Source: a virus
Taxonomy: Duplodnaviria > Heunggongvirae > Uroviricota > Caudoviricetes
Strand: one strand, 5' to 3'
Length of the DNA stretch: 64,000 nt
Virus record (IMG/VR): IMGVR_UViG_2609459822_000013
Location: 1-64,000 of that record
Shown piece after piece: positions 8,340-54,193 of this stretch. The notes under the pieces are model-generated. The model was not told where the DNA came from. It ran no database searches and saw only the letters and a list, made by a program, of their open reading frames with translations. The number at the start of each line of letters is the position of its first letter. The first letter of the stretch is position 1. The translations under genes were made by a program, and so were the position numbers.

Positions 8340-8987
8340 ATGAAAACAAAATGGTATGACTTAGCAAAGCAGCTCATGCGGGCGCAGGGCATGAGCCAGG
8401 ATTCACTAGCGGATCGCATGGGGATAACTAAAGGCGGTCTGTCACACTGGCTGAACGGTCGCCGCGAGCCAAATCTTGAAGATATTGCGCGGATTATGCG
8501 AGAGCTTGGTCGTCGGCAGTTCACTGTTACACATGATGGTATGGTCATTGATGATTCTGTTTCTAATACACTTCAGGCCGTGCCGCCGCGTGATTTAGGT
8601 AGTTACCCGGTTATTGACTGGAAGGACACAGTAAACAATATGGATGACGCAAGGCGTTCAGCATTACGACACGTTACGACTAGCGTTATTTGTTCAGATG
8701 ACAGTTACTGGCTGGTTGCCAAAGGTGAATCAATGAACGCGCCGCAGGGGTTGAGCATCCCGGCGGGGACGATGATACTTGTGGACCCGCACGCGCCAGC
8801 TATTGACGGCAAACTGGTTATAGCCCAGCTTGAGGAAGGGCAGATACCGACGTTTAAACAGTTGATTATTGATGGAGGTCAAAGGCTTTTACGTTCGCTC
8901 AATCCGCTGTATCCGCCAATCCCTATGAATCCAGAATCAAAAATTATAGGCGTGGTGGTTGATGCGAAGATCGTAAACCTGCCATAA
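8340..8987 (+). CDS. CI-type phage repressor (HTH + S24 LexA-like peptidase)
   Basis: 215 aa; N-terminal HTH (QDSLADRMGITKGGLSHWLNGRREP); C-terminal S24 motifs (AKGESMNAP...GTMILVDP). Confidence 0.85.
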   Translation: MKTKWYDLAKQLMRAQGMSQDSLADRMGITKGGLSHWLNGRREPNLEDIARIMRELGRRQFTVTHDGMVIDDSVSNTLQAVPPRDLGSYPVIDWKDTVNNMDDARRSALRHVTTSVICSDDSYWLVAKGESMNAPQGLSIPAGTMILVDPHAPAIDGKLVIAQLEEGQIPTFKQLIIDGGQRLLRSLNPLYPPIPMNPESKIIGVVVDAKIVNLP

Positions 8988-9487: not shown

Positions 9488-9778
9488 ATGAGCGTTACAA
9501 TTATATATGGTAAATGTGATAGCAAAATGAATGCCAGGGAACGCAGAAGGATAAAAAGAGAAAACGAAAGAAAATCATCACCTGCAATCAATAAAACAGA
9601 CAATGTGGATAAAGCTATTCGATTTGCAAACGAGGAAAGATGCAAACCGAATGGCATTAAAGAGCATCGCAAAGGTGCGGCAAAATGGTATGCGGAAAAC
9701 GAAAGCGGCAATTACTACCACGCAACACAACCGCGTAGTCTAGGGGAAAAACCCCTGGATAAAGTACGCTACAGATAA
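9488..9778 (+). CDS. N-type transcription antiterminator (P22 gp24-like)
   Basis: 96 aa; N-terminus MSVTIIYGKCDSKMNARERRRIKRENERK resembles recalled P22 gene 24 N-terminus and carries an arginine-rich motif; ACGGAG RBS. Confidence 0.65.
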   Translation: MSVTIIYGKCDSKMNARERRRIKRENERKSSPAINKTDNVDKAIRFANEERCKPNGIKEHRKGAAKWYAENESGNYYHATQPRSLGEKPLDKVRYR

Positions 9779-16566: not shown

Positions 16567-16582
16567 GTTTACAAAATGGCAT
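16567..16582 (+). repeat. dispersed motif copy GTTTACAAAATGGCAT
   Basis: 13-mer GTTTACAAAATGG identical to 3988/8254 copies. Confidence 0.6.
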
Positions 16583-16587
16583 CATTG

Positions 16588-16603
16588 TGTGATGCGGATC
16601 ACA
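16588..16603 (+). promoter_or_regulatory. CRP-consensus-like palindrome TGTGA-TGCGGA-TCACA
   Basis: perfect match to both CRP half-sites with 6 bp spacer; contains GATC. Confidence 0.4.
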
Positions 16604-16634
16604 TAATGGCGCTTTTTGTCTTGTTTGGGGGTAT

Positions 16635-16647: not shown

Positions 16648-16724
16648 TTCAAGCAAACAAAATGCTCTTTAAAAATCCGGCAGCGCTGAAATGCGTAGAA
16701 ATCACCTGAAAAGGAGAGAGCATT

Positions 16725-16901
16725 ATGTCTTTTGATGATTACCAATGGCATGACGACTATGAACGAGAAAGCGTCATGCGTGCAATGTGCAATGTATGCA
16801 GCACGAAGAAAGGAGGCTGTAACGAGTGCAACGAATGCTTAGAACATTGGCTAAGGGCCGGACACGCCGAAAGGCTGAACGAAACAGAGAATCAAAAATA
16901 A
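16725..16901 (+). CDS. small zinc-ribbon protein (58 aa, CxxC...CxxC)
   Basis: AAGGAGAG RBS; four Cys in two CxxC pairs. Confidence 0.45.
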   Translation: MSFDDYQWHDDYERESVMRAMCNVCSTKKGGCNECNECLEHWLRAGHAERLNETENQK

Positions 16902-16915
16902 TCGGGGTGGTTTTT

Positions 16916-17521
16916 ATGCAAAACCCTAAAAAACCCATAAGACGCCGTTGCAAATGCTGCGGCGTTTTTTTTGAGCCTAAATATCACAATCAAACGTGGT
17001 GCAGCGATGAATGTCTGGAAGAACTGAAGTTTGACCAGCTATGCCGCGACCGTGAGAAGGCTATGAAGGCTATGGAGCGGAAGAAACGCCGTGATAGCCA
17101 GAGGGAAGAACGCAACCGGAAGCGTAAACAGTTAAATCCGCGTAGTTATTGGATCAAACAAGTTCAAAATGTATTTAACGCCTATATTCGCGAACGTGAC
17201 GCGCGCTTGCCGTGTATATCTTGCGGGACTTACTACGGTGAGCAATGCGGGTGGGATGCAGGTCATTACAGGACGGTAGCCGCCGCCGGACACCTTCGCT
17301 TCAACGAGGATAATTGCCATAAGCAATGTAGGCACTGCAACCAGACACTAGACGGCAACATCGGAGGGTATCGCCCGGCGCTGATTCGAAAAATTGGCCT
17401 CGCCAGGGTGGTAGCTCTGGAGAACAACAATGATACGCATAAATGGACGATTGCAGAATGTAAGGAGCTAATAAACATCTATCAGGCTAAATTGGACGCC
17501 TTAAGGAGAAAGGCAGCATGA
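16916..17521 (+). CDS. ninG: NinG (Rap) recombination protein
   Basis: 201 aa from internal ATG; Cys/His-rich NinG-like sequence (CKCCG...CISCGTYYG...HYRTVAAAGHLRFNEDNCHKQCRHCN). Confidence 0.75.
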   Translation: MQNPKKPIRRRCKCCGVFFEPKYHNQTWCSDECLEELKFDQLCRDREKAMKAMERKKRRDSQREERNRKRKQLNPRSYWIKQVQNVFNAYIRERDARLPCISCGTYYGEQCGWDAGHYRTVAAAGHLRFNEDNCHKQCRHCNQTLDGNIGGYRPALIRKIGLARVVALENNNDTHKWTIAECKELINIYQAKLDALRRKAA

Positions 17522-17925
17522 ATGAATATTCTTTTAGCCTGCCTTACCCGCCATCGAATAATCGCTATTACCGACATTCGCGCGGTTTTCACTATATCAG
17601 CAAGGTGGGGAAGGAATACAGGGAACAAGTAAGAGACATCATCGAGCTATTAAATTTAAATATTAACCTACCTTGCCGACTGGCAATTGCCATTTACGCC
17701 GCGCCGCCGGATAACCGGATCAGAGATCTGGATAATATCCCTAAATGCCTTTTTGACAGCCTTACTTATGCCGGATTCTGGAGGGATGACGGGCAAATTG
17801 ACTCAATAAAAATTGTCCGCTGCCGGAAGGTAAAAGGCGGACGCTTGTTTATTAAGATCCGCGAACGCGGCGACCTACTACCGGATATTGACGAATACGC
17901 GACTAATATGTGGGGTGAGCAATGA
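17518..17925 (+). CDS. rusA: RusA Holliday junction resolvase
   Basis: 135 aa; LPYPPSNNRYYRHSRG and catalytic-region pattern typical of RusA. Confidence 0.8.
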   Translation: MNEYSFSLPYPPSNNRYYRHSRGFHYISKVGKEYREQVRDIIELLNLNINLPCRLAIAIYAAPPDNRIRDLDNIPKCLFDSLTYAGFWRDDGQIDSIKIVRCRKVKGGRLFIKIRERGDLLPDIDEYATNMWGEQ

Positions 17926-18104
17926 AAAACGAAGTTAAAGATCTGCAAATAGATATTCAGCGCGACGAGCGTGATTTAGAGACGGTCCGACAAATCCAAG
18001 CTTTCCACATGCGCGAATTACTTGCGCTGAAAGAGTTCGAAAGAAAGCTGGTGCAATCCATTTCTGATCGTAAACGGCTGGCGGCACGTTATGAGGGCAA
18101 ATAA
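17922..18104 (+). CDS. hypothetical coiled-coil protein
   Basis: 60 aa ORF, overlapping starts. Confidence 0.4.
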   Translation: MKNEVKDLQIDIQRDERDLETVRQIQAFHMRELLALKEFERKLVQSISDRKRLAARYEGK

Positions 18105-18832
18105 TGAATTTAGAATCCATTCTAAAATTCCACTTTCCTAAATCACCGCGATTATCTGACGAAAGCCGGGGCACGTCCCCGGACGCTCTTAATACGACGG
18201 ATGCGCTAACCGCTGCGGGTATGGCGCAATCGCGCGTAGAGCTTGGATATAGCGCTTTTTTAGGGAAGATGGAACTATCACAAGCCGAAAAACACAGGGC
18301 CGTAGTTTTGCTTACAGAGCGTTTAAGGGCTATGGCGAAAGATTACGAATACGTGATGGAGTTAAACGAGGATCAGCGCAATGAACTTATTATTCTTGTT
18401 GCCGTTTTCGCGTTTCGGGATTATTGCCAGAGTGCGGCGACCGAAAAAGTTTGCCCTAAGTGCGGCGGCCACGGGCATTTACCAAATCCATATTGCAAAT
18501 ACACATCGACAATTTGTTCGCGGTGCAACGGCAAAGGCTACGTTAAAAACCATTGCCAACGTTGCAAGGGGCGCGGAGAAGTACCGGATAAAGCAGCCAG
18601 TGAAGCGGCGGAAATGCCAGTATTCAAAACGTGCCAGCATTGCGGCGGGCGCGGGTACTCGCGTTTCCCGGTAGATCTCGTCCGGCAGGCCGTTAACCAG
18701 CTTGTTTTCCCGGTAAGCAGATCAACATGGTGGAAGAAATACCGGGTTTTCTATGAAGACGCCATAGCGGAGCTATTCAAAGAAGAGGCCCGCGCGGAAA
18801 GCGAAATTAAACGAGTGACACGGGGTGAATAA
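18104..18832 (+). CDS. putative late antiterminator Q-like zinc-finger protein
   Basis: 242 aa; follows ninG-rusA as Q does in lambdoid phages; repeated CxxCxGxG zinc-binding motifs. Confidence 0.45.
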   Translation: MNLESILKFHFPKSPRLSDESRGTSPDALNTTDALTAAGMAQSRVELGYSAFLGKMELSQAEKHRAVVLLTERLRAMAKDYEYVMELNEDQRNELIILVAVFAFRDYCQSAATEKVCPKCGGHGHLPNPYCKYTSTICSRCNGKGYVKNHCQRCKGRGEVPDKAASEAAEMPVFKTCQHCGGRGYSRFPVDLVRQAVNQLVFPVSRSTWWKKYRVFYEDAIAELFKEEARAESEIKRVTRGE

Positions 18833-19035
18833 TGGACAAGTTAGAAATAAACGATCAGTTTGCCGTTATCTTGTTCGAAGATAAAACGGGCGGCGCGTGG
18901 TGTAAGAAAGTAACTGGTGCAGAAGCGCGATTGATATTGGGTATGGCAAGCGCATTAAACGAAGGCGAATTGCCAGCCGTACCTATTGAGCCTGTTCACA
19001 TTTACGGGAGGAATAGAGAAGATGAAAATAATTAA
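18832..19035 (+). CDS. hypothetical protein
   Basis: 67 aa ORF. Confidence 0.35.
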   Translation: MDKLEINDQFAVILFEDKTGGAWCKKVTGAEARLILGMASALNEGELPAVPIEPVHIYGRNREDENN

Positions 19036-19369
19036 TATCGGGTGGTTATATTGCGAAAACTGCGACGACGACGGCATGGTTGTTAAGACTGAAAAAGGTT
19101 GCGGCTTCTTTTTGTATCAAGGCGATAAGTTTGTTTGTCCGCGATGCGGTGGTCATGGTGAGATAGAAATTATTGAAGATAGTGCTACAGCACCAGAGCC
19201 GGAGCGCATTGTTCTTGACGAAAAAATAAAAATTCATCCTGATTTATTGCAGCAAATTATCGATCACATATCGGCAGCAGCAATCTATGCAGATAATAAT
19301 TATCATCGTGAAATGAACGTAAAACGTGTTCTTGAGCAGTATTTCGAGGGTGGTGATAATGAAGCCTAA
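19022..19369 (+). CDS. hypothetical zinc-ribbon protein
   Basis: CENCDDDG...CPRCGGHG. Confidence 0.4.
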   Translation: MKIINIGWLYCENCDDDGMVVKTEKGCGFFLYQGDKFVCPRCGGHGEIEIIEDSATAPEPERIVLDEKIKIHPDLLQQIIDHISAAAIYADNNYHREMNVKRVLEQYFEGGDNEA

Positions 19370-19628
19370 ATTAAAAGAACATGAATTCAGGGATCTTGTA
19401 AACGGAATAACTGATAAGTCCAGGACTTATTCAAATACACAACAATTAAGGGCTGTGATAGTTACTGAATTAAGGAAATATATAGACCTAAGAGATCCGG
19501 TCGATGTTATGACGATGGACGAGGCCATCAAGCGCCGTTCGGCTGAATGGTCAGTGAGTAATACCGGATTAACCGGATATATTGAAGGCTATAACGACTG
19601 TTTACAGGATCATAGCGATGGCAAGTAA
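19359..19628 (+). CDS. hypothetical protein
   Basis: ORF with overlapping start. Confidence 0.35.
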   Translation: MKPKLKEHEFRDLVNGITDKSRTYSNTQQLRAVIVTELRKYIDLRDPVDVMTMDEAIKRRSAEWSVSNTGLTGYIEGYNDCLQDHSDGK

Positions 19629-19926
19629 AGACCTGCATTTGAATCTGAAAGGGGAATACTTCCACGCCATCCGGGCGGGAAAGAAGGTGGAAGAATACAG
19701 GCTTTACAATGACTATTGGCGTAAACGCCTGGAGGGGCGGGAATATGAACGCCTGATCATTAAGCTGGGGTATCCAGCCAGCCACGAAGCGCACCGGATC
19801 ATAAACCTGCCTTATTTCGGGTACGAAGTAAAAACTATCACGCATCCATTATTCGGCCCTGATCCTGTTAAGGTATTCGCAATTAAATGTGATGTGAATT
19901 GGATGTTAAGGTGGGGTGAGCAATGA
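19618..19926 (+). CDS. hypothetical protein
   Basis: 102 aa ORF. Confidence 0.4.
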   Translation: MASKDLHLNLKGEYFHAIRAGKKVEEYRLYNDYWRKRLEGREYERLIIKLGYPASHEAHRIINLPYFGYEVKTITHPLFGPDPVKVFAIKCDVNWMLRWGEQ

Positions 19927-20138
19927 AAAAAGCTGGCCTGTCAATCAGTCGTGTGTTGTGCGGCGACGAAAGCGAGATCCGCATAGAAATTAAATTTAGC
20001 ACGGGTAAAGAGATAATTCTCTATACGACACCTGAAAACCTGACGCTGGCGCTTACTGGTAAATCTGAAACGCCGTGCGACGTCCGGTTGCGCAATATTG
20101 AGATTAAGGAAATAGGAAGGGTGAGAAATGAAAAGTAA
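19923..20138 (+). CDS. hypothetical protein
   Basis: 71 aa ORF. Confidence 0.35.
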   Translation: MKKAGLSISRVLCGDESEIRIEIKFSTGKEIILYTTPENLTLALTGKSETPCDVRLRNIEIKEIGRVRNEK

Positions 20139-20340
20139 CCGTAAACGCCTGGTAAGGTCATATGACAAAGCGTTAAAGGTTTTTGATGATCTGCGACACA
20201 ATAAACGCCAGCGCCGCAAATGGGCGCGAATGCTTGTTGGTGAATGGCATAACGAAGATTTCTTTCTGGAAGCGCGGCACATGACGCAAGAAGACGCGGA
20301 CCAATTAGCTTACGATAACGTTTATTATATGATGTGGTGA
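20128..20340 (+). CDS. hypothetical basic protein
   Basis: 70 aa ORF. Confidence 0.35.
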   Translation: MKSNRKRLVRSYDKALKVFDDLRHNKRQRRKWARMLVGEWHNEDFFLEARHMTQEDADQLAYDNVYYMMW

Positions 20341-20344
20341 CAAT

Positions 20345-20710
20345 ATGCAAATAATCCTTGATTACCTTTGCCACGCTGCAAATACAATTTTTGGCATGTA
20401 TCAGCAACAATTCCTCAAAGAATGGGACGACATGCTGAATGATATCCTCGATAAAGGATTAATAATGGAGGTTGACGAGCTTACAATCAAATTTAATTAT
20501 GAGGGTGAAATTTATCTAATTTGGGTCGGGAATAGATGGTATTCATACGGTCATATTTATTCAATTGGCGATAAATACATTAAACGAAGCCAGGAATTCA
20601 GACCGCGCTTCCGAACAATGCGCCGCCTGCATGATCTGCATATGAAGTTATTCGAAGATCAGGAAGCACGGGAATTATTCAAAATTTACGGGGATAAATC
20701 ATGGAGCTAA
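20345..20710 (+). CDS. hypothetical protein
   Basis: 121 aa ORF. Confidence 0.45.
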   Translation: MQIILDYLCHAANTIFGMYQQQFLKEWDDMLNDILDKGLIMEVDELTIKFNYEGEIYLIWVGNRWYSYGHIYSIGDKYIKRSQEFRPRFRTMRRLHDLHMKLFEDQEARELFKIYGDKSWS

Positions 20711-20931
20711 AAATCTGGCAGGCTATCGACGTGGTTGATAACGAATTATCTATGTTTGCCACTGACGGAAAGCGCGTGGTGATCGCCACATGGACGCGCA
20801 ACCATGATGATATTACTTTTCGTCGCAAGGCTGCGGAGTGGCTTTTCTCTGATAAAGGCTACACGATGAATATCTCCCAGCTTGCCAGAATGAAGGATGA
20901 AAAGCTGGTAGATAGTTACACGACTGCATAG
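20701..20931 (+). CDS. hypothetical protein
   Basis: 76 aa ORF. Confidence 0.4.
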   Translation: MELKIWQAIDVVDNELSMFATDGKRVVIATWTRNHDDITFRRKAAEWLFSDKGYTMNISQLARMKDEKLVDSYTTA

Positions 20932-20941
20932 TGGGGCAAAT

Positions 20942-21175
20942 ATGTGTATCTATGAACACAAGCGGGATAAAACCCGCTTTTTTGTTCGTGCTGGCGTTGC
21001 ATACCAGTATCACGAATGCGGATACATTGAGGCGCTTGCTTACGATCTGGATTTCGAGCAGGAAAAAGAATGGTTCGATTTCAAAATATACCGCAAGCGT
21101 AAACCAACGCGCTACGAGCGCCACGCTATCCGGGACTTTTTAATCAGCATTGAGCGCTGGAGGACAGAAGAATGA
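20942..21175 (+). CDS. hypothetical protein
   Basis: 77 aa ORF. Confidence 0.4.
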   Translation: MCIYEHKRDKTRFFVRAGVAYQYHECGYIEALAYDLDFEQEKEWFDFKIYRKRKPTRYERHAIRDFLISIERWRTEE

Positions 21176-21450
21176 GAACAAAGAAAACAGCAGATCAGAA
21201 AGCGTTAGTTATCGCTACAACGGACGTATCGTTATTCACGAAGGGTGAAGAGATAGATCTTAAATTGCTTTTTGGAATGTTTGAGCCACACGAAAAGCCG
21301 TGGTTCGTACATGAAGATAAACAAGGCAATATGCGCGTAGTAGTGCCTGACAGTAAAAGCGATATATTTTTTGGTATTCCAGATCCGTTACATGACGGTG
21401 AGATGTTGGCGGTGTTGTTGATCTCTGATGCTGTTACTTATAAGGGGTAA
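21172..21450 (+). CDS. hypothetical protein
   Basis: 92 aa ORF. Confidence 0.45.
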   Translation: MRTKKTADQKALVIATTDVSLFTKGEEIDLKLLFGMFEPHEKPWFVHEDKQGNMRVVVPDSKSDIFFGIPDPLHDGEMLAVLLISDAVTYKG

Positions 21451-21452
21451 AG

Positions 21453-21680
21453 ATGAAAGTCAAATTCTTGCACGATCACGGTTATCCGTCATTGAAACAG
21501 GTTGTTGGTAAGGTCGTTAATGTCGTTCATAGCGATGATGTCACTTGCATGATTAACGGTGCTGATTTAATCGCCGCTGGCGCTGATGATCATTACATCA
21601 ATCCGGCGTGGTCGTATACGTTCAGCCTGGGTGACTTCGTTGGCGACAAGGGGCGCGGGCTGCAAGTGGTCGAGGGTTAA
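21453..21680 (+). CDS. hypothetical protein
   Basis: 75 aa ORF. Confidence 0.4.
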   Translation: MKVKFLHDHGYPSLKQVVGKVVNVVHSDDVTCMINGADLIAAGADDHYINPAWSYTFSLGDFVGDKGRGLQVVEG

Positions 21681-21684
21681 TATC

Positions 21685-21933
21685 ATGGACGTTTACGAAG
21701 ATCTATACCTTCAGACGAATACCCACACTTTTTATTTTTTGAAAAACGGCGTTGTATATCGCAGCGACGACGGGATGGTAATGAAGGAGTGGTTATTTAA
21801 GCGTAAAGACCTACTCGACGATCTGGTTTTTGCCGGGATATTTCGTAAACGTCCGGCTAACCTGGAAGAAGAAATGTTGATTGAGGTAATTAAAAATGAA
21901 AATCAGGGTAAGTTATTTCCGGGCGAAAGATAA
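21685..21933 (+). CDS. hypothetical protein
   Basis: start at ATG after GAGGG RBS. Confidence 0.4.
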   Translation: MDVYEDLYLQTNTHTFYFLKNGVVYRSDDGMVMKEWLFKRKDLLDDLVFAGIFRKRPANLEEEMLIEVIKNENQGKLFPGER

Positions 21934-22147
21934 GGCAACAGGAAAGCAGATGGCGATCCTGGTTAACGAGGCCAATTATATGTTTGTACTTCAGCCGTGG
22001 TGCATAGCTGACTATAACGATGATTATCGTCGTCACGGTGCGCGGAGTGCGGTAGGCATGAAAGGCTGGCAACCGCGCGACATGGAAAACTATTGTGAAT
22101 GGAAATTAGTAGCAAAATACACTGTCGATTATAAAGGTGTTTTCTGA
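21896..22147 (+). CDS. hypothetical protein
   Basis: 83 aa ORF. Confidence 0.4.
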   Translation: MKIRVSYFRAKDKATGKQMAILVNEANYMFVLQPWCIADYNDDYRRHGARSAVGMKGWQPRDMENYCEWKLVAKYTVDYKGVF

Positions 22148-22219
22148 TTAATGTTACTTTCACGGAAGATATGCGAACCAGTGGGGCAAATGACCCCATC
22201 AAGCCAGAAGGGTTTAATC

Positions 22220-22519
22220 ATGAAAAGCGATAAATTCATTGCGTGCTGTTTTGTTGAAGTGCCTAAAGGTGATGCCTTCTGCGATTATGAATTTAAAGAC
22301 AGTTGGGGAAAATCTCATGTTGTAGTTGGGAAGCGCGGAGACTGGTTATACATAACAGACGACGACATGATTTTTACTGCAAACCAGTTATTCAAAATTA
22401 AGTCAGAAAATAGTGAAACGCCACTTTGCAGCATGTTTAACATGCATTATCACTCACTATTATTGTTAAAACAAGATGTTATAAATAAAGCGCGTAGCTT
22501 ACCTGGTGCTGAATTTTAA
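22220..22519 (+). CDS. hypothetical protein
   Basis: 99 aa ORF. Confidence 0.4.
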   Translation: MKSDKFIACCFVEVPKGDAFCDYEFKDSWGKSHVVVGKRGDWLYITDDDMIFTANQLFKIKSENSETPLCSMFNMHYHSLLLLKQDVINKARSLPGAEF

Positions 22520-22542
22520 TTTATTACTAAGGAGAATAAGCA

Positions 22543-22866
22543 ATGTACAAATTTATCAGCGTTAAAGTTTTTCGTGGCACTTTACCGAGCAAGGAAACAT
22601 TAGGGCAATTCGCCGGACAACCTGGCGCATGTTTCCGTGTAGCCACTGAAGACGACGCGCACGTTAAATGCTTCCATGTAACTGAACCGCCTTTTAATGC
22701 AGACCATCTTGAAGACCTGAATAGAATTAAAAGCCTTATTTTTGCTTATCTGGCGTTCCCTGGAATGGGTGATACTGATGTTGAATTGCTTGGTGCTGAA
22801 CTGTTTGCGGAATACAAAATGACTGAAGGTGTAACAGGGGGAATTGACATTGAGCGCATTAAGTAA
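22543..22866 (+). CDS. hypothetical protein
   Basis: 107 aa ORF. Confidence 0.45.
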   Translation: MYKFISVKVFRGTLPSKETLGQFAGQPGACFRVATEDDAHVKCFHVTEPPFNADHLEDLNRIKSLIFAYLAFPGMGDTDVELLGAELFAEYKMTEGVTGGIDIERIK

Positions 22867-23104
22867 GCTATACAAGATCAGGTGTAAAGGCGAATACCCT
22901 GGCTTTACTACTGGATGCGAATACCTGGGCCATATTGGGTATGGATCTTTCGGTGAATTAGGGATGAATACGCTTGACGACGACGGCGACAGCAGGACGC
23001 TTGATCTTGATTCTGATGATTTCGAATACATCCCGCCAGTGACTTCCCGCGTAGTTGATGAGTTCCTGGCTGAACATGAAGATGATGAGGATGATTATGA
23101 TTGA
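22844..23104 (+). CDS. hypothetical acidic protein
   Basis: 86 aa, Asp/Glu-rich C-terminus. Confidence 0.4.
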   Translation: MTLSALSKLYKIRCKGEYPGFTTGCEYLGHIGYGSFGELGMNTLDDDGDSRTLDLDSDDFEYIPPVTSRVVDEFLAEHEDDEDDYD

Positions 23105-23291
23105 ATGCCTTATTGCTGTGATTGTTTTGCTTTATATCGCTGGCGCGATCCTGATGTCATGTTTTATTAAGTATAGCGGCGCTGAACCTGGTGGCCTTGA
23201 GATTCCTTTATGGCCTGTAGTGATGTTTCTCGCTTTCTTTGATGCTACGGTAGTGCAGATCAAGCGAGCTATTAAGGAGCGCAAGAAATGA
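23097..23291 (+). CDS. small membrane protein
   Basis: two hydrophobic segments. Confidence 0.35.
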   Translation: MIECLIAVIVLLYIAGAILMSCFIKYSGAEPGGLEIPLWPVVMFLAFFDATVVQIKRAIKERKK

Positions 23292-23470
23292 TTGAAGACG
23301 GTATCTATGGTGTAAACCTGATGGAGAACGTTTTTTACATGGTGGACGGCGATACTGTAACAATCAGCTTCGATGGTGGGGAATATGCAGAGCCATTCTT
23401 CAAAACAACAAGGGAAGACATTAAGCACGGCGTTGATAACGGCGTACTGTTTAAGGTTGGCGAGTTATGA
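23288..23470 (+). CDS. hypothetical protein
   Basis: 60 aa ORF. Confidence 0.35.
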   Translation: MIEDGIYGVNLMENVFYMVDGDTVTISFDGGEYAEPFFKTTREDIKHGVDNGVLFKVGEL

Positions 23471-23665
23471 ACGAGATCGAAGACGGTATCTATTTGCACA
23501 TGTTATTTAATATCGCCTATTTGGTTAAAGGTGATAAGGTGATGACACAAAGCGCTGGCAATAAATATTGGGAATCAAGCGGAATGGATCGGTGGCATAT
23601 GCAGATGTTGCTTGATAATGGCCTGATATACAGGAAGCAGTAAAGCCGTATTTGTGGGGGGCAGT

Positions 23666-23893
23666 ATGGAAGAAATGATTTTGCTGTCATTAATATGGCA
23701 TCGGTTCGGGAGTGAAAAAGGTTACTCGCCTGCTTGCTGGCTGGATAGTAAAAGTGGGAAGGGGGATCAAAACGAATGCGAATTTAGAAGGGAGTGGCGA
23801 GGCGGTAAGGAAGTGCAAGGATATTTTGCACCGAAACACGTCGCCGCCAAATACAAAGAATGGCTTGTTCGTTTGCTTGGCCCTTATCGTTAA
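23666..23893 (+). CDS. hypothetical protein flanked by 18 bp direct repeats
   Basis: 75 aa ORF; TAAAGCCGTATTTGTGGG at 23643-23660 and 23893-23910. Confidence 0.4.
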   Translation: MEEMILLSLIWHRFGSEKGYSPACWLDSKSGKGDQNECEFRREWRGGKEVQGYFAPKHVAAKYKEWLVRLLGPYR

Positions 23894-23958
23894 AGCCGTA
23901 TTTGTGGGTCGAAAACAAACAGATTAAAATATTACCTAACAATGCGAAACTGTAACTA

Positions 23959-23982
23959 CCCGGCCCCGTGCCGGGTTTTTGC
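23959..23982 (+). terminator. tR-prime-like intrinsic terminator upstream of lysis genes
   Basis: hairpin CCCGGC-CCCGT-GCCGGG followed by TTTTT. Confidence 0.55.
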
Positions 23983-24000
23983 TTTGTTGGAGGTAAATCT

Positions 24001-24201
24001 ATGTTCGACAGAATACGGGAGGCATGTGCGTATGTGACTGGGGCCGTAACTGCTTTTTTCGGCGCGATAACCATCAATGATATTGCCGTCTTTGTGGGTA
24101 TCTTATCAACCGTAGGCACATTTGCCGTTAATTATTACTTCAAATCGCAGGAGAACAAGCGAGCGCAAGAGGAACACGACGCGCGAATGGGGAATAAGTA
24201 A
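24001..24201 (+). CDS. holin (pinholin-like, class II)
   Basis: 66 aa; GGAGG RBS; two TM segments and charged C-terminus; directly precedes endolysin. Confidence 0.7.
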
Positions 24202-24202
24202 C

Positions 24203-24694
24203 ATGATTAGCCAATCGCTGAAAAATAAGATTATTGCGGCGGCGGCTGGTGGGGCGATCGCTATTGCGGGGATGATGATAAAAGATCTTGAAGGCGTTGA
24301 GTATAAGCCGTACAGAGATGTCATCGGTGTTTACACGATATGTTATGGACACGTCGGAAAAGACATCATGCTTGGGAAGACTTACACGCAATCAGAATGC
24401 GATGCTTTGTTAAATAAAGATCTACACAAGACCGCAAAAGCGATTGACCCATATATCAAAGTCGAAATATCAGATTTTACCCGCGCTGCACTTTATTCCT
24501 TCGCCTATAACGTAGGCGCAACCAACTTCAAAACATCAACCTTATTAAAACTACTCAATGACGGCAAGAAATCAGAAGCGTGCGCACAGCTTAAGCGCTG
24601 GGTATACGCTGGCGGTAAGAAGTGGCAAGGCCTGGTAAACCGCCGCGAGGTTGAATATGCCGTTTGCGAATGGGGGGAAACGTGGACAAGGTGA
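24203..24694 (+). CDS. SAR endolysin (T4-lysozyme-like, GH24)
   Basis: N-terminal weakly hydrophobic signal-anchor [17 protein letters not shown]; lysozyme core pattern (E...D...Y.C..GH.TIG). Confidence 0.8.
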
Positions 24695-25152
24695 AGGCGT
24701 TAATTATCGCCGCTGTTGTTTGCATTATTGCCGGACTGACCGCCGTAACATGTTATTACCAGGGTGAGGCGGCAAGGTTACAGGAAGAAGTCACGGTAAC
24801 GAAAGGCGCACTGAAAACGGCAAGTAACACTATTCAGCAGATGAAGGAGCGAAACGCCGAACTGTCAAAACTTGATAAGAGGTATCACGATGAGATTAAA
24901 GCTATCAGATCTGACATTGCCGATCTGCGCACTGGCATTGATAACGGTACTATCCGGTTGCGCGTCAACGCAATACCCGTGCGAGTGTCCGACCCCGCCG
25001 CGACCGCCAGCCGCATTGATGGAGCCACCTGCGAGCTTGATGCCACTGCTAGACAATCTTATCTATCCCTCAGAGAACAACTAAAAGAGAAAGACGCACA
25101 GATCACTGGCCTACAGGACTACATCAAAACTCAGTGTTTACGCAAAGAATAG
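24664..25152 (+). CDS. Rz-like i-spanin
   Basis: N-terminal TM followed by coiled-coil; immediately after endolysin; start codon uncertain. Confidence 0.65.
24890..25084 (+). CDS. Rz1-like o-spanin lipoprotein embedded in Rz (+1 frame)
   Basis: signal peptide with lipobox LSGC, Pro-rich mature part; fully nested in Rz. Confidence 0.65.
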   Translation: MRLKLSDLTLPICALALITVLSGCASTQYPCECPTPPRPPAALMEPPASLMPLLDNLIYPSENN

Positions 25153-54071: not shown

Positions 54072-54193
54072 GCAGGTGAATGCAACGTCAAGCGATGGGC
54101 GTTGCGCTCCATATTGTCTTACTTCCTTTTTTGAATTACTGCATAGCACAATTGATTCGTACGACGCCGACTTTGATGAGTCGGCTTTTTTTT
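54072..54193 (+). ncRNA. fnrS: FnrS small regulatory RNA
   Basis: recalled FnrS sequence (GCAGGTGAATGCAACGTCAAGCGATGGGCG...) and zntB-dbpA intergenic location; ends in hairpin GCCGACTTTGATGAGTCGGC + T9. Confidence 0.75.

Follow-up and report, generated by a model that had tools for sequence, protein, structure and literature searches.

A block of small genes between the Q antiterminator gene and a conserved PR'-like unit in an mEp021-like prophage of Escherichia coli

In phage lambda and in P22 the late antiterminator gene Q is closely followed by the late promoter PR' and its qut site, the separation being ~80 bp in lambda and ~45 bp in P22. Lambda PR' could be written as TTGACT-17-TAAATT-TGACTC-AACGAT, in which a sigma70-dependent pause, the site of Q loading, is brought about by the -10-like element at +1 to +6, and the Q-binding element (QBE) lies within the spacer. 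In P22, AACGAT is found 6 nt after TAAATT; PR', qut, the start site and tR' are annotated, and the terminator is ~30 nt from the start. A different layout was observed in the first 64,000 nt of the IMG/VR virus record IMGVR_UViG_2609459822_000013 (this whole stretch is called the window below), where 20 small open reading frames (ORFs), named O1 to O20 and referred to together as the block, separated Q from the holin gene, and a conserved unit resembling PR', qut and tR' sat at the distal end of the block. It is probable that this block, typical of its phage family, belongs with Q to a delayed-early operon antiterminated by the N-like protein Gp17, and that the late promoter lies distal to it and is served by Q in trans.

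Among described systems, the nin regions of lambda (ninA-ninI, between P and Q) and of P22 resemble the block in being composed of small, packed and partly overlapping ORFs which vary among relatives, and homologues of NinF, NinG and RusA were located just upstream of the block. In lambda and P22 the nin genes are on the rightward early transcript and are read by N-antiterminated polymerase, and the same is proposed for the block. Unlike lambda nin, the block comes after Q instead of between the replication genes and Q, and it is larger (2-6.8 kb, 8-28 ORFs), with five genes universal in the family and a conserved internal hairpin.

Accessory genes such as stx, tRNAs and morons are likewise placed between Q and the lysis cassette in Shiga toxin (Stx) phages and other lambdoid prophages, and the cargo of Stx phages is downstream of PR' and tR', Q-dependent and late. 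The block differs from this in being upstream of the PR'-like unit, from which early and Q-independent expression is predicted. The Q-to-S position of the Stx-phage cargo and its late expression are also dealt with in the abstract of PMC7547250. A paper of 2025 (PMC11893012) describes the mEp021 group, to which the prophage in the window was assigned, under the name 'mEpimmI': its members are Nus-dependent, use antitermination of the N-like and Q-like kinds and have large variable regions. Variable regions, Gp17 and nut sites are covered there in general terms, and the part of that paper available here contains no analysis of the block, of the late-promoter location or of the hairpin in O9.

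Q and the PR'-like unit before the holin gene

The relatives used for comparison were 48 loci, namely 45 IMG/VR contigs with the same Q and three GenBank phages (MagusPhagus, mEp021 and mEp554); Q and holin were both found in 47 of them, and these 47 were used for the counts of block length and of the late unit. The Q gene, the components of the late unit and the lysis genes were as follows.

18104-18832, + strand: Q, 242 aa (PF03589, PDB 7ubm), in 48/48 relatives
23902-23907, + strand: proposed -35 hexamer TTGTGG, 3/6 consensus match
23908-23924, + strand: spacer of 17 nt
23913-23924, + strand: near-invariant spacer segment AAACAAAYRGAT, candidate Q-binding element by conservation
23925-23930, + strand: proposed -10 hexamer TAAAAT, 5/6 consensus match, invariant
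23931-23937, + strand: discriminator ATTACCT
23938-23943, + strand: -10-like AACAAT at ~+1 to +6, invariant, as are the 6 nt that follow; proposed to induce a sigma70-dependent pause (qut)
23944-23957, + strand: linker of 14 nt
23958-23976, + strand: tR'-like terminator with an ACCCGG/CCGGGT stem and a 7-nt variable loop, T-run to 23980 and whole feature extending to 23985; free energy of folding (dG) -23.6 kcal/mol, z -4.8
23989-23993, + strand: holin ribosome-binding site GGAGG
24001-24201, + strand: holin, PF16080 (1.6e-14), ATG at 24001
24203-24694, + strand: lysozyme, PF00959
24664-25152, + strand: Rz, with Rz1 embedded at 24872-25084

The gap before the holin gene was 107 nt and held the whole PR'-like unit, which was 5.07 kb downstream of the Q stop codon with 20 ORFs between. 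The tR-prime-like terminator that the first-pass annotation had placed ahead of the holin gene was indeed found, as the hairpin at 23958-23976 with its T-run, and is annotated as TERM_5 in mEp021. The spacing of the unit (-35, 17 nt, TAAAAT, 7 nt, AACAAT, 14 nt, hairpin, T-run) was identical in 47/47 relatives; among them the -10 and the pause element were invariant and the stems nearly so, while the hairpin loop, linker, discriminator and upstream DNA varied. In 35/47 relatives the -35 read TTGT[AG][GT], and in the remaining 12/47 its place was taken by the poor hexamer TCGCGC. Two relatives with a different holin (55% identical) kept the unit, and the composite -10/pause pattern occurred once in the 64-kb window. 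Nucleotide diversity (pi) was distributed over the unit as follows.

-10 hexamer: 0
AACAATGCGAAA: 0
hairpin stems: 0-0.01
-10-adjacent spacer segment AAACAAAYRGAT: 0.065
hairpin loop: 0.16
linker: 0.18
-35 hexamer: 0.29
DNA upstream of the late unit: 0.40
distal spacer: 0.50

The start codon of O1 overlapped the stop codon of Q, thus no room was left for a late promoter directly after Q. With the PR'-like unit at the far end, the block is most likely early and co-transcribed with Q, rather than late. The first-pass annotation had pointed out that the late promoter and qut normally adjoin Q and that small ORFs follow Q here; this was right for the position, at which lambda and P22 have only the late promoter, qut and terminator, but the promoter and qut were not missing, a PR'-like unit being found at the distal end.

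In its layout this unit agreed with those of lambda, P22 and phage SE1Spa (TTGCAA-17-TATCAT-AACCCT-AACAGT, then a terminator), and, as in lambda and P22, its terminator was just upstream of the lysis genes and the presumed cognate protein was a Q-lambda homologue. The proposed pause element began 7 nt after the -10, compared with 6 nt in lambda and P22. The differences from lambda and P22 were the block of 2-6.8 kb that separates Q from the late unit, a weak -35, a terminator at ~+21, a spacer unrelated to the lambda QBE and an extra zinc module in Q. The distal unit would be expected to have promoter activity and to bind Q. A relative with a PR'-like unit adjoining Q was also sought, and the partial E. 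coli genome matches obtained were more family members with a block of their own.

The protein encoded at 18104 matched PF03589 in Pfam (4.6e-31) and matched Q-lambda (PDB 7ubm) end to end (E 2.6e-37, residues 1-114 and 150-240). As far as sequence tells, it is a genuine late antiterminator of the Q-lambda family, and the earlier doubt whether this zinc-finger protein was the real late antiterminator was settled by these matches. Its motifs CQRCKGRG and CQHCGGRG aligned with CRDCHGTG and CGRCKGVG of Q-lambda, the zinc-binding CxxC...CxxC module being present. An insertion of ~35 aa relative to Q-lambda (residues 115-149, nt 18446-18550) contributed two extra CXXCXGXG motifs (CPKCGGHG...CSRCNGKG), giving four in total, as in the two-zinc domain of DnaJ; judged by the gene length of 240-242 aa, this insertion appears common to the whole family. 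The nearest Q outside the family was that of Salmonella phage SE1Spa, with 38% identity, and Q used as a query against genome contigs gave no match.

As a separate observation, pairing is possible between AACAATGCGAAA, which precedes the tR' hairpin, and TTTTTGCTTTGTTGG, which follows it (23936-23990; minimum free energy -23.6 kcal/mol), and this pairing extends to the first bases of the holin Shine-Dalgarno sequence. In read-through transcripts it could have an effect on holin translation, or it could render the terminator bidirectional.

The block and its relatives

Twenty ORFs of 58-121 aa were identified on the + strand at 18832-23893, between Q and the terminator and holin, and their starts were refined by the positions of ribosome-binding sites, PHROG coverage and the annotation of relatives. 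Overlaps of 1-38 nt were found at 13/20 junctions, together with four gaps of 10 nt or less and three gaps of 22-72 nt, which bore out the first-pass description of about 20 tightly packed small ORFs after a Q-like gene.

18832-19035, + strand: O1, acidic
19022-19369, + strand: O2, acidic; zinc-ribbon protein with CxxC...CxxCGGHG motif
19359-19628, + strand: O3
19618-19926, + strand: O4, ASCH-like
19923-20138, + strand: O5
20128-20340, + strand: O6
20345-20710, + strand: O7, with invariant RPRFRTMRRL motif
20701-20931, + strand: O8, core; ends the proximal half (O1-O8, 18832-20931)
20942-21175, + strand: O9, core, contains a hairpin; opens the central segment (O9-O13, 20942-22147)
21172-21450, + strand: O10
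21453-21680, + strand: O11, core
21685-21933, + strand: O12, core
21896-22147, + strand: O13, core
22220-22519, + strand: O14; opens the distal half (O14-O20, 22220-23893)
22543-22866, + strand: O15
22850-23104, + strand: O16, acidic, pI 4.1
23097-23291, + strand: O17, small, with two hydrophobic segments
23288-23470, + strand: O18, acidic; tandem paralogue of O19
23467-23643, + strand: O19, tandem paralogue of O18
23666-23893, + strand: O20, flexible module

All 20 ORFs were real, conserved and under purifying selection. The dN/dS ratio, computed with orthologues from the 48 related loci, was 0.06-0.35 in 20/20 ORFs, in the same range as for Q, lysozyme and NinG. PHROG matches were obtained for 18/20 ORFs (E 1e-19 to 1e-60), all of them to 'unknown function' families, with that of O2 weaker (3e-5). 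Several zinc-ribbon or acidic proteins had been noted in the block by the first-pass annotation: acidic ones were present (O1, O2, O16 and O18, pI 4.1-4.6), but a zinc-ribbon motif only in O2. The GC content of the block had no anomaly relative to the rest of the phage, and promoter-like sites in the region were at chance level (22 found vs 21.1 expected in a consensus scan). The ORFs of the block were small, tightly packed and co-directional, without promoters of their own.

The block characterizes a known phage family as a whole and is no anomaly of a single genome. It was present in 47/47 relatives with both Q and holin, with a Q-to-holin distance of 2,007-6,805 nt; the shortest was that of mEp021 (2,007 nt, 8 ORFs), and that of the window was 5,172 nt. 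Across the 47 blocks, including the window's own, ~30 protein families were obtained by rough clustering, with 8-28 ORFs per block and a median of 21. The gene order was essentially colinear among relatives, and the differences consisted in presence or absence of modules. When at least 60% alignment coverage was required for presence of an orthologue, O8, O9, O11, O12 and O13 were found in 48/48 relatives, O7 in 47, and O1 and O6 in 44, while O2, O5, O10 and O20 were found in only 10-28 relatives (O10 in 28/48, O20 in 10/48). Thus 15/20 ORFs of the window were flexible among relatives, and block length varied threefold. The first impression that no ORF resembles a core function has to be qualified in view of the five present in every relative and of the GenBank name of the O12 orthologue given below. 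The counterparts of the block are gp38-gp45 in mEp021, and in mEp554 and MagusPhagus they are annotated as 'hypothetical proteins'.

The largest gap in the block, of 72 nt (22148-22219), contained a GGGG...CCCC hairpin without a T-run, and no promoter or terminator was seen when it was checked for them. At this place the larger blocks of relatives carry five to seven further ORFs, and the gap is likely a deletion junction. Two copies of a direct repeat were observed around O20.

23641-23658, + strand: copy 1 of the 18-nt direct repeat TAAAGCCGTATTTGTGGG, one of two copies bracketing O20
23891-23908, + strand: copy 2 of TAAAGCCGTATTTGTGGG, containing the proposed -35 hexamer

The first bases of each copy are the stop codon of the ORF before it, and relatives without O20 have a single copy joined straight to the promoter; the repeats look like the trace left by a module that was inserted at the upstream border of the late promoter. 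O18 and O19 both matched phrog_15318 and were ~45-50% identical to each other's orthologues. The window was also observed to be a recombinant, with NinG-O7 ~100% identical to L005/L008 of one IMG/VR phage lineage, O10-O19 100% identical to L030 of a second lineage (O20 98%), and the crossover located in the universal central genes O8/O9.

The segment of the window from 16.7 to 25.2 kb had 86-91% nucleotide identity, at 59-82% query coverage, to mEp554, MagusPhagus, mEp044, mEp010, mEp013, mEp515 and mEp021. A homologue of the N-like antiterminator Gp17 (9488-9772, 92.6% identity) and one of the mEp021-group repressor Rep (8391-8984, 94% identity) were identified, and by genome similarity, synteny and these two homologues the window is assigned to an mEp021-group (mEpimmI) prophage. 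Rfam searches placed the chromosomal small RNA (sRNA) fnrS at 54072-54189 and the RalA antitoxin sRNA, presumably of the Rac prophage, at 58499-58677. These markers of the host and of another prophage at 54-59 kb indicated that the window is a prophage inside the E. coli chromosome. The mEp021-like prophage probably ends near 53-54 kb, adjoining host and Rac DNA, which would fit the ydaM-region attachment site reported for the mEp021 group. Outside the block, a protein of 457 aa (28766-30157), encoded between terminase and a Mu-F-like head protein, matched the portal family PF06381 (7.9e-19); its orthologues in related prophages are named 'anti-CBASS protein Acb1 family' in RefSeq, which is probably a misannotation.

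Proposed transcription of the block and the hairpin within O9

The genes and sites upstream of Q which are used in the proposed mechanism were the following.

16582-16618, + strand: terminator-like hairpin and T-run between the methyltransferase gene and ninF; dG -22.6 kcal/mol, z -4.7; TERM_4 of mEp021
16663-16700, + strand: nutR2-like site, boxA TGCTCTTTAA then a short hairpin with A-rich loop; proposed loading site of the N-like antiterminator
16826-17521, + strand: ninG (Pfam NinG, 1.3e-66)
17518-17925, + strand: rusA (Pfam RusA, 7.8e-15)
17922-18104, + strand: ORF of 60 aa; like ninG and rusA a delayed-early gene ahead of Q

The position of the nutR2-like site matches that of nutR2 described for mEp021 in PMC11893012. 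The block would be the distal part of a rightward delayed-early operon. RNA polymerase from the early promoter would be modified by the N-like Gp17 at the nutR2-like site (16663), and would then read ninF-ninG-rusA-Q and O1-O20 without a break, through the hairpin in O9. The late promoter served by Q would be at the far end of the block (23902-23943), with the terminator at ~+21 (23958) and then the holin gene. Q, produced from the early transcript that also carries the block, would act in trans at a distance of 5 kb downstream, where it could load at the sigma70 pause induced by AACAAT and take polymerase past tR' into the genes for lysis and morphogenesis. The block would then correspond in function to the lambda nin region but follow Q, whereas nin precedes it; the timing of the block would be early and its read-through would depend on Gp17.

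The locations of homologues were in keeping with an early character of several of the ORF families. Distant homologues of O7 were found in the early operon of P2-like Salmonella prophages, adjoining methyltransferase genes and gpA. Homologues of O4, named ASCH or RNA-binding proteins, were found in Stx phages and P22-like phages, and those of O5 in Stx phages, P22-like phages and the virulent Dhillonvirus; in Stx-phage records the homologues of O4 and O5 were a few kb from the record start.

One further element inside the block was conserved at the nucleotide level.

20960-20988, + strand: terminator-like hairpin AAGCGGGATAAAACCCGCTT + TTTTTGTT (whole: AAGCGGGATAAAACCCGCTTTTTTGTT) with T-run, codons 7-16 of O9; dG -19 kcal/mol, z -5.2

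This hairpin was nearly invariant in the 48 loci, with a nucleotide diversity of 0.006 vs 0.097 elsewhere in O9, and synonymous polymorphism was present in 1/10 hairpin codons vs 48/67 other codons of O9 (Fisher p 3e-4). In a scan for runs of at least nine codons without synonymous polymorphism, it was the only such run among the well-sampled ORFs of the block (at least 15 alleles), and the known Rz/Rz1 overlap was recovered as a positive control. The hairpin is read here as an internal terminator, which would make the distal block and read-through toward the lysis genes dependent on antitermination; a role in RNA stability or in translation is equally possible. A second late promoter upstream of this hairpin was considered and rejected, with no promoter-like site there.

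Several points weigh against an early block with a distal late promoter. The proposed late promoter was absent from the sites called by the consensus promoter scan, and its -35 matches 3/6 consensus positions, and 2/6 in 12/47 relatives, whereas the -35 of PR' in lambda and P22 is near-consensus. The hairpin starts at ~+21, a few nt past the expected pause at +16/+17, compared with +31 in P22 and ~+170 in lambda. The putative Q-binding element was recognized by its conservation and has no similarity to the lambda QBE, and the holin-proximal DNA was fairly conserved (holin dS ~0.18), so that some of the invariance could be low divergence. Transcription of the block and of the late unit is a prediction from sequence, and reading through the O9 hairpin by Gp17-modified polymerase is assumed. 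In addition, a terminator 't5' is listed as experimentally shown in PMC11893012, and the available part of that source does not confirm its identity with the terminator at 23958.

Alternative explanations and functions of the block proteins

A counter-defence or host-takeover arsenal, in which most of the small proteins would inhibit restriction, CRISPR, abortive infection or other host systems or redirect host machinery, is a possible explanation of lower probability, and it is compatible with either model of transcription. It is favoured by the small size of the proteins, by the acidity of several (O1, O2, O16 and O18), by the early placement and by the flexibility of 15/20 ORFs among relatives. 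Some families were common to unrelated temperate and virulent phages, as is typical of accessory genes, and homologues of O11 were found in Escherichia phages of 136-140 kb such as FFH2 and FV3, presumably rV5-like myoviruses. However, the five universal ORFs and the small colinear pan-block of ~30 families are unlike known hypervariable counter-defence hotspots, and beyond a weak ASCH match no named family was found in Pfam, NCBIfam, PADLOC and PHROG annotations and no sequence match in PDB.

The 20 ORFs had no defence or named family in Pfam, NCBIfam and PADLOC except a sub-threshold ASCH match for O4, and O2, O4, O12 and O16 had no significant match to PDB sequences. The AlphaFold model of O13 (pLDDT 77.5) had no Foldseek match in PDB below E 0.28, and that of O7 (pLDDT 82) had no meaningful structural neighbour. 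Large-database homologue searches with O13 and O11 yielded nothing beyond close relatives in E. coli prophages, and in tblastn searches of phage genomes with O5, O7, O11 and O16 every match was annotated as 'hypothetical protein'. No Rfam family was found in the block region. Homology to Ocr, ArdA or Acr-type proteins was absent in Pfam, NCBIfam, PHROG annotations, PDB and fold searches, which are general libraries and may have missed distant members. The O12 orthologue of mEp021 (gp41) is annotated as 'virion structural protein' in GenBank, and data in support of this name were not found in PMC11893012 or its supplements.

O4 is probably an ASCH-type RNA-binding protein, and the other block proteins are taken to be early accessory or host-interaction proteins. 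O17 is probably a small membrane protein, encoded four genes upstream of the holin gene, for which superinfection exclusion or lysis timing are possible roles. The flexible, partly acidic ORFs are reasonable candidates for anti-defence or host takeover. More doubtful is a division of labour in which O8, O9, O11, O12 and O13 with the O9 hairpin would form a module for early-to-late control or host takeover needed by the family, while ~25 flexible families would supply new early effectors, anti-defence proteins among them, and their location, with Q on one side and a displaced late promoter on the other, would see to it that they are made before the lysis genes can be turned on.

It is unlikely that the block is late-operon cargo, with the late promoter and qut directly after Q or inside its end, the block expressed late like stx, and the hairpin at 23958 or that in O9 acting as a downstream terminator. 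This would be the canonical lambdoid arrangement, and the terminator-like hairpin that comes first downstream of Q (20960) might in principle act as tR'. However, no intergenic space exists after Q, whose stop codon overlaps the O1 start, the -10/pause-element arrangement was found nowhere else in the 64-kb window, and the scan for promoter-like sites gave none immediately ahead of the O9 hairpin. Nor did the 3' end of Q or the well-sampled O3 and O6-O8 show a patch of nucleotide-level constraint, with O1, O2, O4 and O5 represented by few alleles. The sole conserved PR'-like unit was distal.

Even less probable is a set of lysogenic-conversion morons, beneficial to the host and expressed in the prophage from promoters of their own. 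In lambdoid prophages the neighbourhood of Q and of the lysis genes is a common site of morons, but the ORFs of the block were translationally coupled and had no individual pairs of promoter and terminator, promoter-like sites did not exceed chance, and GC content was not anomalous. The reading of the block as filler without function, or as a remnant in decay whose ORFs are spurious, including the loss of conservation and frame-disrupting decay that would have spoken against functional genes, was refuted by dN/dS well below 1 in 20/20 ORFs, by full-length orthologue alignments in up to 48/48 relatives and by PHROG matches for 18/20 ORFs.

The new element is one of architecture, a modest lambdoid variant in which Q and its probable target promoter are parted by a conserved, probably early block with an embedded conserved hairpin. 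If the late promoter is truly 2-7 kb from Q, the Q-to-holin genes in common gut E. coli prophages deserve early, not late, annotation, and the family would give a natural test of an antiterminator of the Q-lambda type acting in trans, far from its own gene. The ~30 conserved families of small proteins, predicted to be early, are a compact set for screening of host takeover and counter-defence, and the hairpin in O9 is a candidate internal checkpoint of the early operon. Current models are not overturned by this, and the regulatory architecture of lambdoid phages is extended to a sister group.

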